Part shown: piece after piece, positions 1-3,605 of the stretch
Numbering within the stretch: position 1 is the first letter of the stretch
How the letters are laid out: each line of letters begins with the position of its first letter
DNA from: Escherichia phage MS2
Sequence record: LC710218.1
DNA length: 3,605 nt
Strand: one strand, 5' to 3'
Made by a program: the position numbers and the translations under genes
Notes under the pieces: generated by a model
Database searches by the model: none
The model's input: the letters and a program-made list of their open reading frames with translations, nothing else
Told to the model about the DNA's origin: nothing

Positions 1-49
1 TACCAGATCTATCGCTGTGACTGGAGTTCAGACGTGTGCTCTTCCGATC
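1..49 (-). other. Illumina TruSeq-type adapter remnant, reverse-complemented (adapter core + 8-nt index + flank); technical, not biological
   Basis: Positions 17-49 are the exact reverse complement of AGATCGGAAGAGCACACGTCTGAACTCCAGTCAC. Positions 9-16 are the reverse complement of the index AGCGATAG. Positions 1-8 are the reverse complement of ATCTGGTA, one mismatch (position 4) from the canonical continuation ATCTCGTA. The junction with phage sequence is ambiguous within 47-49. Confidence 0.95.
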
Positions 50-184
50 GGGAGAATCCCGGGTCCTCTCTTTAGGGGGAGGTCCCTGGGCCGAAGCCCG
101 CCCACCTTTCGGTGGAGCCACCGCTTTCGCGGACCCGTGCTCTTTCGAGCACACCCACCCCGTTTACGGGGGTCCCTCGGTCAG
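50..184 (-). promoter_or_regulatory. Phage 3' untranslated region downstream of the replicase stop, truncated (terminal ~33 nt including the CCA end absent)
   Basis: Lies between the replicase stop (TAG, reverse complement at 185-187) and the adapter. The reverse complement ends ...GAGAGGACCCGGGATTCTCCCGAT, which matches my recollection of the MS2 3' UTR just before the terminal ...TTGGTAACTAGCTGCTTGGCTAGTTACCACCCA. Confidence 0.8.
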
Positions 185-1822
185 CTACCGAGGAGAGCTC
201 GCTGGCCCACACTCCTGAGGGAATGTGGGAACCGGCGTTAGCCACTCCGAAGTGCGTATAACGCGCACGCCGGCGGACTTCATACTGTCGGTGATTTCAC
301 CTCCAGTATGGAACCACGCTATGTAGCGACCACTGTCGTGCTTTTCGCTGAAGAACTTGCGTTCTCGAGCGATACGAGCAAGACGGAAACCCGAGGTACG
401 GGTATCCGCGAGCAGCCGCCCGTACGGAGTCTTGGTGTATACCGAGACTGCCGTAGGCGGGCTGACTACGTAGTAGTCGGCAGCGAGGTCCGTCCCACCG
501 AAGAACATCGAAGGCACCTGGGAGGAGAGCCGTACCCACACCTTGTAGAGGCGTGGATCTGACATACCTCCGACAACTCCCCAACCCCGTAGCCGATTTA
601 ATATCAGCATCAGGGCGAAGAGATTGTCAACAGGTTTCTTGATGTAAAACGGTTTGACATCGACACCACGGTAAAAGTGCGCGCCGCAGCTCTCGCGAAA
701 GAGCCCGGACACGAACGTTTTACGAAGATTCGGTTTAAAACCGTAGTAGGCAAGTGCCTCTAGCACACGGGGTGCAATCTCACTGGGACATATAATATCG
801 TCCCCGTAGATGCCTATGGTTCCGGCGTTACCAAAATGGATTTGGGTCGCTTTGACTATTGCCCAGAATATCATGGACTCTAGCTCAAATGTGAACCCAT
901 TTCCCATTGTGGAAAATAGTTCCCATCGTATCGTCTCGCCATCTACGATTCCGTAGTGTGAGCGGATACGATCGAGATATGAATATAGCTCAGGTGGGAG
1001 AAAACTCCACACCAGGCGATCGGAGATGGAATCGGATGCAGACGATAAGTCTATCGTCGCAAGCGAACCATCTACGCTGCCCTGCTGAGCCAGACGCTGG
1101 TTGATCGATTGATCATTCAGGTCTATACCAACGGATTTGAGCCGGCGTCTGATAAAGGCACCGACCCCTTTCTGGAGGTACATATTCATATCAGGCTCCT
1201 TACAGGCAGCCCGATCTATTTTATTATTCTTCGGAACTGTAAACACTCCGTTCCCTACAACGAGCCTAAATTCATATGACTCGTTATAGCGGACCGCGTG
1301 TCTGATCCACGGCGCACATTGGTCTCGGACCAATAGAGCCGCTCTCAGAGCGCGGGGGGTAACGGTTGCTTGTTCAGCGAACTTCTTGTAAGGCGCTGCA
1401 TCCTGCAACTTGTGCCCCATAGAGGCACCGTTGGAGAACGTGCATTGCCCAAACAACGACGATCGGTAGCCAGAGAGGAGGTTGCCAATAAGGCTACGGA
1501 TGCTGGTTTGTAAAACATCCGGATCCCATGACAAGGATTTGTCATGTAAGAAACCTTCTCTATTTATCTGACCGCACCGATCATTCGCCTCCCGTAACTT
1601 AGCGATAGCTAAGGTACGACGGGTCGCCTCGTCATTACCAGAACCTAAGGTCGGATGCTTTGTGAGCAATTCGTCCCTTAAGTAAGCAATTGCTGTAAAG
1701 TCGTCACTGTGCGGATCACCGCTTCCAGTAGCGACAGAAGCAATTGATTGGTAAATTTCGAGAGAAAGATCGCGAGGAAGATCAATACATAAAGAGTTGA
1801 ACTTCTTTGTTGTCTTCGACAT
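185..1822 (-). CDS. rep: RNA-directed RNA polymerase, replicase beta subunit (545 aa)
   Basis: The 545-aa ORF begins MSKTTKKFNSLCIDL and contains the palm-domain motif GIYGDDIICPSE. Length, sequence and position match the MS2 replicase. ATG start at 1820-1822 (minus strand) sits inside the operator hairpin. Confidence 0.97.
   Translation of the reverse strand: MSKTTKKFNSLCIDLPRDLSLEIYQSIASVATGSGDPHSDDFTAIAYLRDELLTKHPTLGSGNDEATRRTLAIAKLREANDRCGQINREGFLHDKSLSWDPDVLQTSIRSLIGNLLSGYRSSLFGQCTFSNGASMGHKLQDAAPYKKFAEQATVTPRALRAALLVRDQCAPWIRHAVRYNESYEFRLVVGNGVFTVPKNNKIDRAACKEPDMNMYLQKGVGAFIRRRLKSVGIDLNDQSINQRLAQQGSVDGSLATIDLSSASDSISDRLVWSFLPPELYSYLDRIRSHYGIVDGETIRWELFSTMGNGFTFELESMIFWAIVKATQIHFGNAGTIGIYGDDIICPSEIAPRVLEALAYYGFKPNLRKTFVSGLFRESCGAHFYRGVDVKPFYIKKPVDNLFALMLILNRLRGWGVVGGMSDPRLYKVWVRLSSQVPSMFFGGTDLAADYYVVSPPTAVSVYTKTPYGRLLADTRTSGFRLARIARERKFFSEKHDSGRYIAWFHTGGEITDSMKSAGVRVIRTSEWLTPVPTFPQECGPASSPR
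797..808 (-). other. YGDD catalytic motif of the RdRp (replicase residues 339-342)
   Basis: Reverse complement of 797-808 is TACGGGGACGAT, encoding Y-G-D-D in the replicase frame. This is the conserved motif C of levivirus replicases. Confidence 0.9.
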
Positions 1823-1905
1823 GGGTTATCCTCATGTTTGAATGGCCGGCGTCTATTAGTAGATGCCGGAGTTTGCTGCGATTGCTGAGGGAATCGGGTT
1901 TCCAT
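1678..1905 (-). CDS. lys: Lysis protein L (75 aa), overlapping the coat 3' end and the replicase 5' end in a different frame
   Basis: The 75-aa ORF METRFPQQSQQTPASTNRRRPFKHEDNPCRRQQRSSTLYVLIFLAIFLSKFTNQLLLSLLEAVIRTVTTLQQLLT matches MS2 protein L, with a hydrophobic C-terminal half. It overlaps coat (1856-1905) and replicase (1678-1822), as in MS2. Residue 27 is N where I recall Y. Confidence 0.9.
   Translation of the reverse strand: METRFPQQSQQTPASTNRRRPFKHEDNPCRRQQRSSTLYVLIFLAIFLSKFTNQLLLSLLEAVIRTVTTLQQLLT
1819..1837 (-). promoter_or_regulatory. Replicase translational operator hairpin (coat-protein binding site and packaging signal), with a variant loop
   Basis: Reverse complement of 1819-1837 is ACATGAGGATAACCCATGT. 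It forms the stem ACAUG/CAUGU with a bulged A and a GG/CC closing pair, and contains the replicase AUG. The canonical MS2 operator is ACAUGAGGAUUACCCAUGU, so the loop here reads AUAA instead of AUUA (window position 1827). Confidence 0.85.
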
Positions 1906-2248
1906 CTTTTAGGAGACCTTGCATTGCCTTAACAATAAGCTCGCAGTCGGAATTCGTAGCGAAAATTGGAATGGTTAGTTCCATATTTAAGTACGAACGC
2001 CATGCGGCTACAGGAAGCTCTACACCACCAACAGTCTGGGTTGCCACTTTAGGCACCTCGACTTTGATGGTGTATTTGCGATTCTGCGCAGAGCTCTGAC
2101 GAACGCTACAGGTTACTTTGTAAGCCTGTGAACGCGAGTTAGAGCTGATCCATTCAGCGACCCCGTTAGCGAAGTTGCTTGGGGCGACAGTCACGTCGCC
2201 AGTTCCGCCATTGTCGACGAGAACGAACTGAGTAAAGTTAGAAGCCAT
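1856..2248 (-). CDS. cp: Major capsid (coat) protein (130 aa including the initiator Met)
   Basis: The ORF MASNFTQFVLVDNGGTGDVTVAPSNFANGVAEWISSNSRSQAYKVTCSVRQ...AANSGIY matches the MS2 coat protein as I recall it, residue for residue. It ends in tandem stops TAA TAG (reverse complement at 1853-1858). Confidence 0.97.
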   Translation of the reverse strand: MASNFTQFVLVDNGGTGDVTVAPSNFANGVAEWISSNSRSQAYKVTCSVRQSSAQNRKYTIKVEVPKVATQTVGGVELPVAAWRSYLNMELTIPIFATNSDCELIVKAMQGLLKDGNPIPSAIAANSGIY

Positions 2249-2271
2249 GCTTCAAACTCCGGTTGAGGGCT
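2249..2271 (-). promoter_or_regulatory. Maturation-coat intercistronic region carrying the coat gene ribosome binding site
   Basis: A 23-nt spacer between the maturation stop (TAG, reverse complement at 2272-2274) and the coat ATG (2246-2248). Sense-strand sequence is ATAGAGCCCTCAACCGGAGTTTGAAGC, immediately before ATGGCT. Confidence 0.6.
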
Positions 2272-3453
2272 CTATCTAGAGAGCCGTTGCCTGATTAATG
2301 CTAACGCATCTAAGGTATGGACCATCGAGAAAGGAGACTTTACGTACGCGCCAGTTGTTGGCCATACGGATTGTACCCCTCGATGCATGGCTGAGATTTG
2401 GGCCTTAGCAGTGCCCTGTCTCTCCACAGTCCACCCGTAGGGAGCGTCAACGCTTATGATGGACTCACCCGTTATTACGTCAGTAACTGTTCCTGACATG
2501 TAGGAGCATCCCACGGGGGCCGTAAGGCCCTCGAGCATGTTACCTACAGGTAGGAGCCAGTCGACAACGAATGAGAAAGGCACCTTTTCCCACACTATAC
2601 CTAGTGGGTTCAAGATACCTAGAGACGACAACCATGCCAAACGTGCATCGTTTATGTAAAACCATATCACGATACGTCGCGATATGTTGCACGTTGTCTG
2701 GAAGTTTGCAGCTGGATACACCAGACGGCCATCTAACTTGATGTTAGTACCGACCTGACGTACGGCTCTCATAGGAAGAAACTCTTGAAGGTGAACCTTC
2801 GTAAGCATCTCATATGCACCCTGGATATCACTCATTAGTGGTAACCAACCGAACTGCAACTCCAACCACCTGCCGGCCACGTGTTTTGATCGAAACTTTC
2901 GATCTTCGTTTAGGGCAAGGTAGCGGAGCGCCTGGCGCCAATTACCGCGACGAGCGGCAGTGTACGCCTTCACGAGCGCAATGGTTTGCGTCGCGAGTTG
3001 TGAGGCTGTCGACCTAGCCTCTGCTAAAGCAACACCAAGGTTAAAATTACCCTGGGTGACCTTTTGCAGGACTTCGGTCGACGCCCGGTTCGCAACGTTC
3101 TGCGGCACTTCGATGTAAGTCAAGTTTTGGCTTACAGGGAAGAGGCTGTAGCAGGAGCGTGCGTCGAGGGAGAAGCCGAAACCGGCTTTCTCCTCGTACG
3201 GGCGACCCCACGATGACCCACTTCGCTTGTAGGCACCTTGATCTATCGATGTGACACTTAACGCCCCCCGTGAATACGGAGAGGGGTAGTGCCACTGTTT
3301 CGTTTTGGCCCCAGTCGAGTTAAAACGACGGGGAGTCCAGTTCGAACGATATTTTAAAGAGAATGAGTTATCTTCAGTCTCACCGTCCGCGTAAACGCGA
3401 ACGGAGGGGACGAAGGTCTCGTTCTCCCTATCAAGGGTACTAAAAGCTCGCAC
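2272..3453 (-). CDS. mat: Maturation (A / assembly) protein, 393 aa, GTG start codon
   Basis: The ORF begins (M)RAFSTLDRENETFVPSVRVYADGETEDNSF and ends ...LDALALIRQRLSR, matching the MS2 maturation protein. The start codon is GTG (reverse complement of cac at 3451-3453), as in MS2, preceded by a Shine-Dalgarno sequence. Confidence 0.95.
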   Translation of the reverse strand: MRAFSTLDRENETFVPSVRVYADGETEDNSFSLKYRSNWTPRRFNSTGAKTKQWHYPSPYSRGALSVTSIDQGAYKRSGSSWGRPYEEKAGFGFSLDARSCYSLFPVSQNLTYIEVPQNVANRASTEVLQKVTQGNFNLGVALAEARSTASQLATQTIALVKAYTAARRGNWRQALRYLALNEDRKFRSKHVAGRWLELQFGWLPLMSDIQGAYEMLTKVHLQEFLPMRAVRQVGTNIKLDGRLVYPAANFQTTCNISRRIVIWFYINDARLAWLSSLGILNPLGIVWEKVPFSFVVDWLLPVGNMLEGLTAPVGCSYMSGTVTDVITGESIISVDAPYGWTVERQGTAKAQISAMHRGVQSVWPTTGAYVKSPFSMVHTLDALALIRQRLSR

Positions 3454-3555
3454 AGGTCAAACCTCCTAGGAATGGAATTCCGGCTACCTACAGCGATAGC
3501 CATGGTAGCGTCTCGCTAAAGACATTAAAAATGGCATTAGCTCGACAGGAAGTTG
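3454..3555 (-). promoter_or_regulatory. Phage 5' untranslated leader, truncated (first ~25 nt of the genome, the 5' terminal hairpin, absent)
   Basis: Reverse complement gives CTCAACTTCCTGTCGAGCTAATGCCATTTTTAATGTCTTTAGCGAGACGCTACCATGGCTATCGCTGTAGGTAGCCGGAATTCCATTCCTAGGAGGTTTGACCT before the GTG. This matches the MS2 leader from about genome nt 26. The terminal GGGTGGGACCCCTTTCGGGGTCCTG is replaced by adapter. Confidence 0.85.
3461..3467 (-). promoter_or_regulatory. Shine-Dalgarno sequence (AGGAGGU) of the maturation gene
   Basis: Reverse complement of 3461-3467 is AGGAGGT, 7 nt upstream of the GTG start. This is a strong match to the anti-SD of 16S rRNA. Confidence 0.85.
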
Positions 3556-3605
3556 AGATCGGAAGAGCACACGTCTGAACTCCAGTCACAGCGATAGATC
3601 TCGTA
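3556..3605 (+). other. Illumina TruSeq-type adapter read-through (adapter core + index AGCGATAG + ATCTCGTA); technical, not biological
   Basis: 3556-3589 is AGATCGGAAGAGCACACGTCTGAACTCCAGTCAC, 3590-3597 is AGCGATAG, and 3598-3605 is ATCTCGTA, the start of the canonical ATCTCGTATGCCGTCTTCTGCTTG. The first two bases (AG) could equally be the last phage bases. Confidence 0.95.

Follow-up and report, generated by a model that had tools for sequence, protein, structure and literature searches.

The replicase operator hairpin of an MS2 genome (LC710218.1) with A in place of U at loop position -5

The replicase translational operator of bacteriophage MS2 is both a repressor of replicase expression and a strong encapsidation site (review PMC10610835), the dual role that a first-pass annotation had already assigned to it in the DNA studied here. 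In this DNA, the loop of the hairpin reads AUAA instead of AUUA, and the single base that distinguishes the two forms belongs at the same time to a codon of the overlapping lysis gene. This raises the question of whether the element is still the MS2 operator, whether the base is genuine, and whether such a change would act through the contact with the coat protein, through the lysis protein, or hardly at all.

The window, that is, the whole stretch of 3,605 nt analysed here (LC710218.1), is on its minus strand a near-full-length MS2 genome, 99.8% MS2 outside the operator, with window positions 3557..47 corresponding to nt 26-3536 of the reference NC_001417.2. The maturation (A) protein gene (2272..3453, minus strand) was recognised as an open reading frame, which differs from the reference by G42R (nt 253 G>C) and S245V (nt 862-863 TC>GT). 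The coat protein gene (1856..2248, minus strand) was recognised by its translation, in which the RNA-contact residues are wild type, and the gene of the 75-aa lysis protein L (1678..1905, minus strand), which lies in the +1 frame across the 3' end of the coat gene and the 5' end of the replicase gene, by its open reading frame and translation. The replicase β-subunit gene (185..1822, minus strand) is an open reading frame of 545 aa whose AUG (1822..1820) is located within the 3' arm of the operator stem, and an identical replicase protein was found in 2,456 blocks of public assemblies. The contig lacks the genuine phage termini, both 5' and 3'. The MS2 match stops at window 47, positions 1..46 being non-viral read-through of an Illumina TruSeq-type adapter (index AGCGATAG), and an inverted copy of the Illumina adapter with the same index, likewise non-viral and read from the sequence, occupies 3558..3605. 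With adapter left at both ends, and with a mismatch in one of the adapter copies, the contig is unpolished.

The operator was scanned for with the pattern ACATGAGGATNACCCATGT, whose sole match, with A at N, is located at 1819..1837 on the minus strand, where positions 1837..1819 read ACAUGAGGAUAACCCAUGU. Written as ACATGAGGATAACCCATGT, the 19-nt operator has a single occurrence in the window, against a chance expectation of 0.00 matches. Counting from the replicase AUG, with window 1822 as +1, window 1827 becomes position -5, third of the four loop bases. Base-by-base comparison with NC_001417.2, whose operator at 1746-1764 is ACATGAGGATTACCCATGT, identifies the base at window 1827 (minus strand) as A for U, at MS2 nt 1756 (T in the reference), which is the first base of L codon 27. 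The first-pass annotation had placed an operator with an AUAA loop at 1819-1837, and this is borne out by the unique minus-strand match; the AUUA that it gave as the normal loop, and left to alignment with the reference to overturn, agrees with what NC_001417.2 carries.

Against Rfam family RF02359 ('Bacteriophage MS2 operator hairpin'; gathering score 40), window 1819-1854 scores 56.4 bits, 4.9 bits lower than the 61.3 bits obtained for reference MS2, and the loop U is the sole mismatch of the window to the fully conserved positions of the family consensus. The predicted fold, (((((.((....))))))), has a stem of 7 bp, interrupted by a bulged A at -10 and capped by a tetraloop, and both the fold and its minimum free energy of -5.3 kcal/mol are the same with A, U, C or G at -5. 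Whether A or U is placed at -5, the pairing probabilities of the stem differ by no more than 0.015 when 19-179 nt of sequence are folded. An effect of U1756A on RNA structure was rejected, the predicted energies and, to that margin, the pair probabilities being identical for A and U. The operator keeps A(-10), A(-7) and A(-4), the Shine-Dalgarno GAGG (-11 to -8; window 1830..1833, minus strand, within the hairpin and the same as in the reference) and the AUG that opens the 545-aa replicase reading frame. A pyrimidine at -5, used as a test of membership, is lacking in the window operator, which has A. Despite this base, the element was filed as an operator, because a pyrimidine at -5 is a determinant of affinity and not a structural requirement; it is an MS2-type operator (RF02359), present as a point variant.

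The wild-type operator of MS2 and R17 shares with that of the window its genomic position, 18 of 19 nt, the stem, A(-10), A(-7), A(-4), the Shine-Dalgarno sequence and the AUG, and differs from it in having U(-5) where the window has A(-5). U is found at -5 in all the group I genomes examined, namely R17, M12, fr, FrSaffron, two field isolates and the reference, and the loop is AUUA in each of them except fr, whose AAUA loop differs at -6 and keeps U(-5). The group II phage GA (Emesvirus japonicum) resembles the window in its bulged A, its 4-nt loop and the A at -7, -5 and -4, but its loop is AAAA, its stem has another sequence, and its coat protein carries Ser aligned to MS2 Asn87, whereas the window encodes Asn87. 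When examined as a GA-type pair, the window thus has the RNA half (A at -5) without the coat half (Asn87 is present), and it is not GA-type. As read from the aligned sequences, the window loop is beyond the natural range of group I, with the -5 base that GA combines with a differently specified coat protein. Another likeness is offered by the synthetic A(-5) operator (PDB 2C50; AUAA binding libraries), which has the same hairpin sequence as the window, although there it is an isolated hairpin or part of a reporter, whereas here it stands in a replicating genome and recodes L.

Three origins had been offered for the base in the first-pass annotation, a genuine variant, a minority allele of the population, or a sequencing or assembly error, and the first of them is favoured at the consensus level by LC710217.1 and by 24 separate Sanger-sequenced clones. 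LC710217.1 (MS2 "GI_A", wastewater, Yamanashi, Japan) agrees with the window at 3,510 of its 3,511 viral nt, has A at 1756, and also carries the six other lineage-specific differences of the window. It is a separate assembly, since its contig ends differ from those of the window; it very probably represents the same lineage and laboratory, and, sharing the lineage, it gives only partly independent support for the base call. A search of about 288 deposited MS2-like records spanning this region with the exact 61-mer around -5 found U in 174, A in 25, and C and G in 0 each. The 25 carriers of A are LC710217.1 and 24 Sanger-sequenced clones from one series (FJ799467-FJ799712, host E. coli TOP10 F'), which is credited to Betancourt 2009 in passages of citing papers.

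All 24 of these clones, with accessions in the range FJ799651-FJ799712, belong to evolution line 3. Among the deposited clones of this line, numbered according to their record descriptions, the share with A was at least 1/19 at G40 (FJ799641-659), 3/17 at G50 (660-676), 11/21 at G60 (677-697) and 9/15 at G70 (698-712), each carrier count being a minimum, as a clone was included only when its 61-mer matched exactly. In the 2009 work of Betancourt, the fitness effect of each substitution is said to have been measured. Taking the records together, it is very improbable that A at window 1827 came from an error of sequencing or assembly, or was a minor allele raised to consensus. The unpolished state of the contig, with adapters at both ends and a mismatch in one of them, would be compatible with such an origin, but A is also the base in LC710217.1, whose contig ends are others and which departs from the window at a single nucleotide elsewhere while sharing the six lineage differences, the allele appears independently in the 24 Sanger-sequenced clones, and the site is outside any homopolymer or low-complexity context.

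In the public contigs encoding an identical replicase, U was found at -5 in 10 of 10, from which it follows that the stock commonly used for spike-ins does not have the allele. When the operator with any base at -5 was sought in IMG/VR and JGI/ENA metagenome contigs, two matches in MS2 context were obtained, both with U; a further 24 pattern matches in these contigs were discarded, their sequence context being unrelated to MS2.

Only seven nucleotides set the window apart from the wild-type genomes nearest to it, an IMG/VR contig and MK213795 (host on record, E. coli ATCC 15597): 253 G>C, 567 C>T, 862-863 TC>GT, 1756 U>A, 1986 C>T and 3299 C>T. The line-3 clones with U1756A have in common with the window this same nucleotide change, the 61-mer and 253C, and in one late clone also 3299T, but they carry it on a background of 1625C, 1685T, 1697G, 2733T, 3038T and 3056T that is absent from the window. 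The ancestor of line 3 (FJ799467) already had 1625C, 1685T, 2733T and 3038T, and its clones gained 253C, 1697G, 1756A and 3056T, with 3299T in that single late clone; the window is without 1625C, 1685T, 1697G, 2733T and 3056T, and has 3038C, 567T, 862-863GT and 1986T. That the window derives from evolution line 3 was rejected on grounds of parsimony, as it would take about six reversions, against three parallel changes (253, 1756 and 3299) if the two are separate. Independent recurrence is favoured because the backgrounds differ and because the changes at 253 and 3299 are recurrent elsewhere, 253C being present in 162 of the 224 records that span this site and C3299T being described as a founder polymorphism in the MS2 stock of another laboratory (PMC10256221). 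Thus, on the most parsimonious reconstruction from these substitutions, U1756A would have arisen independently in the window lineage and in line 3.

With regard to the protein partner, the coat protein of the window is wild type, with Thr45, Ser47, Thr59, Lys61, Tyr85 (window 1993-1991) and Asn87 (1987-1985), and no nucleotide difference from NC_001417.2 was found in its gene. A compensating coat change such as N87S was accordingly rejected. Asn87 recognises the pyrimidine at -5, and in classic filter-binding experiments a purine at this position is reported to cost about ten-fold or greater affinity.

The loop base at -5 stacks on Tyr85 of the coat protein (PMC12803234; PMC1635273). An AUCA loop has a higher intrinsic affinity than AUUA, and in cells coat protein mildly disfavours loops of AUAA or AUGA, which require a more stable stem for binding to be detectable (PMC12803234); the order of preference given in the first-pass annotation, with C best and purines weaker, is in agreement with these data. 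At overexpression, the fraction of GAGGAUAACCC bound was only about 5-10% below that of the C form (PMC12803234). U(-5)G retained strong repression of an E. coli reporter in a study whose authors cite this same change as binding poorly or not at all in vitro (bioRxiv 10.1101/168625), and the MS2 coat protein has been crystallised with the adenine(-5) operator (2C50, table of PMC10610835).

U1756A is probably a genuine, viable and recurrent allele, one that mildly tunes the regulation exerted by an operator already fully known rather than creating a new element. It is proposed that a purine at -5 would retain the stacking on Tyr85 and lose the pyrimidine-specific fit to Asn87, and that coat dimers would bind the A(-5) operator somewhat more weakly. 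Replicase shut-off would then need more coat protein, leading to later or leakier repression and to more replicase. Packaging would be little affected, buffered by the many additional coat-contacting stem-loops that are found throughout the MS2 genome (review PMC10610835). By analogy with the loops studied elsewhere, a modest weakening of the coat-operator contact, in a hairpin that would still be functional, is most likely.

The regulatory effect may also be negligible, since the loss of binding in cells is only slight. An alternative proposal is that U1756A is neutral or nearly so, and that drift, bottlenecks or hitch-hiking account for its presence in the window lineage and in line 3. The small in-cell binding loss for AUAA, the repression still exerted in E. 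coli with a purine at -5 (bioRxiv 10.1101/168625) and the position of L residue 27 in a dispensable domain are consistent with neutrality, as are the strong bottlenecks that plaque isolation and serial passage impose; moreover, the line-3 allele is linked to other derived changes, and its rise in frequency could reflect hitch-hiking with them. However, the change is a transversion that occurred on two separate backgrounds, each time independently, its share in line 3 went up monotonically across four time points, and U(-5) is invariant both in the group I genomes examined and in the Rfam consensus, an invariance that argues against neutrality of the site in nature; neutrality is considered improbable.

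The same nucleotide has a second reading in L. Codon 27 (window 1827-1825) is AAC (Asn) in the window and UAC (Tyr) in the reference, which makes the replacement of Tyr27 by Asn, already proposed in the first pass, correct. Y27N (...KHEDNPCRR... in the window versus ...KHEDYPCRR... in the reference) is the sole difference in L, whose hydrophobic C-terminal half is intact. The reference L, with Tyr27, was found in the protein collection, and an exact-protein look-up of L(Y27N) in it gave no match, a result that is uninformative because LC710217 annotates L as a misc_feature only. Gene callers are expected to pass over an overlapping reading frame such as that of L.

Tyr27 belongs to the soluble domain at the N-terminus of L. 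The C-terminal 35 residues of the protein carry its lytic activity, in keeping with the earlier statement that the N-terminal region is dispensable; N-terminal truncations lyse faster in vivo, and the soluble N-terminal domain slows membrane insertion and oligomerisation (PMC10688784). Since lytic activity is confined to the C-terminal 35 residues, Y27N is unlikely to disable L, and it could change the timing of lysis; in a domain that is dispensable for lysis and modulates its timing, the replacement would be tolerated or would contribute to faster lysis. Other changes are found near the start of L. Thus, 1685 C>T, 1691 T>C and 1697 A>G are synonymous in the coat gene and, by codon arithmetic, lead to T3I, F5S and Q7R in L. 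The change at 1697 is present in line-3 clones, and those at 1685 and 1691 in related laboratory genomes.

It could be proposed from these data that selection acted on L itself, Y27N altering lysis timing by way of membrane insertion or oligomerisation, or of DnaJ dependence, with the weaker coat contact as a tolerated side effect. The coat-synonymous changes at 1685, 1691 and 1697 also modify the L N-terminus, truncation of this region speeds lysis and the soluble domain has an influence on insertion and oligomerisation (PMC10688784), and L K23E (A1744G) and neighbouring changes have been inferred to alter lysis in passaged MS2 (PMC11979748). Furthermore, both events at U1756 were U>A and none U>G, which would fit a requirement for Asn, with two events only. 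Nevertheless, the 1685-1697 changes are no proof of selection at the protein level, because they are also inside the lysis-hairpin RNA structure, lysis does not require the N-terminal half of L, and position -5 is a direct coat contact, so that some effect at the RNA level is certain. Selection on L is regarded as rather unlikely, and a mild tuning of the operator continues to be the preferred reading.

A bolder version of that reading is that U1756A is a recurrent adaptive allele, acquired in parallel under laboratory-like propagation, in which a loop shifted toward the GA type, with no coat change to match, would loosen replicase repression and/or retune lysis; this is possible, and it is advanced here tentatively, with more doubt than confidence. 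The appearance of the same transversion on two MS2 backgrounds, with a rise in one of them, suggests that coat-operator affinity or the L N-terminus is under tunable selection in culture. If U1756A is such an adaptive allele, it would offer a natural handle on how tightly the repression set-point is optimised. For those who use MS2 as a process control or spike-in, stocks vary at a site on which MS2-hairpin tools and some assays rely. Beyond annotation, the variant has little significance, as it concerns a textbook operator whose A(-5) form has already been made, measured and crystallised, and the allele itself is already known, being present in GenBank and in the evolution series, and crystallised with the coat protein.

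A text search of the literature for 'T1756A' together with MS2 gave no match, nt 1756 is not mentioned in the main texts of the Stern-lab MS2 passage papers, and position 1756 is likewise not mentioned in the papers on the delta-1764, A1664G and A1744G cheaters. The region of nt 1660-1830 has been described as an information-rich hotspot, in which single changes are pleiotropic, affecting L as well as RNA structures for replicase translation or packaging (PMC11979748). U1756A resembles the three cheaters in being a single-nucleotide change within this hotspot, pleiotropic as they are, and differs from them in that they depend on co-infection (PMC11979748). We infer that U1756A replicates without co-infection, because it is found in a deposited isolate genome and in the consensus genome analysed here.

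The contig analysed here carries an Illumina TruSeq-type adapter with index AGCGATAG at both of its ends (window 1-46 and 3558-3605), the two copies lying in inverted orientation and differing from each other, with ATCTGGTA in one versus ATCTCGTA in the other. Moreover, the window lacks both termini of MS2, with about 25 nt lost at the 5' end and about 33 nt at the 3' end. Taking into account both the terminal adapters and the loss of the phage termini, this contig is an untrimmed assembly and not a finished genome.

Comparison with the reference genome NC_001417.2 revealed clusters of differences at window 1576-1581, 1423-1424 and 120-132, corresponding to MS2 nt 2002-2007, 2159-2160 and 3451-3463, respectively. 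The same differences appear in every modern MS2 sequence compared, and thus the three clusters seem to reflect mistakes in, or peculiarities of, the original reference instead of features of the window genome.

In the maturation protein, the G253C substitution (window 3330, MS2 nt 253), which leads to G42R, is common to the window and to the evolved clones of line 3 of an experimental-evolution series, the line in which U1756A arose, and is absent from the ancestor of that line (FJ799467). Since it was found in 162 of the 224 deposited records covering nt 253, G253C represents a highly recurrent substitution of laboratory passage. The same gene harbours an adjacent double change, TC to GT, at window 2720-2721 (MS2 nt 862-863), which converts Ser245 into Val and whose sole other carrier among the 124 records covering the site is LC710217.1, the MS2 GI_A genome from wastewater. 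A C has been identified at nt 862 in one other laboratory ancestor, and codon 245 of the maturation protein therefore appears to be variable. In the replicase, the window has the synonymous change C3299T (window 284, MS2 nt 3299) in common with LC710217.1 and with FJ799712, a late clone of line 3; this change has also been described as a founder polymorphism in the MS2 stock of another laboratory (PMC10256221).

At MS2 nt 2577 (LC710217.1 position 2596, window 1006), LC710217.1 has a T, while the window and all the other genomes have an A. Being just 7 nt away from the ATCC-type strain, this "wastewater" isolate may be a re-isolated laboratory strain. It has to be noted that nt 1-44 of LC710217.1 are unlike the MS2 5' end, despite its "complete genome" label.

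The 19-nt operator pattern, allowing any base at position -5, is also matched by 24 metagenome contigs whose flanks are unlike those of MS2, one flanking context being common to several of them. Finding the exact operator sequence is therefore no evidence of MS2 when the surroundings are not those of a levivirus. The public collection contains 2,456 blocks listing a replicase identical to that of the window, suggesting that MS2 is widely used as a spike-in. In the ENA assemblies ERZ2184xxxx and ERZ27284499, chimeric contigs join MS2 sequence of very high coverage to stretches with bacterial-type genes.
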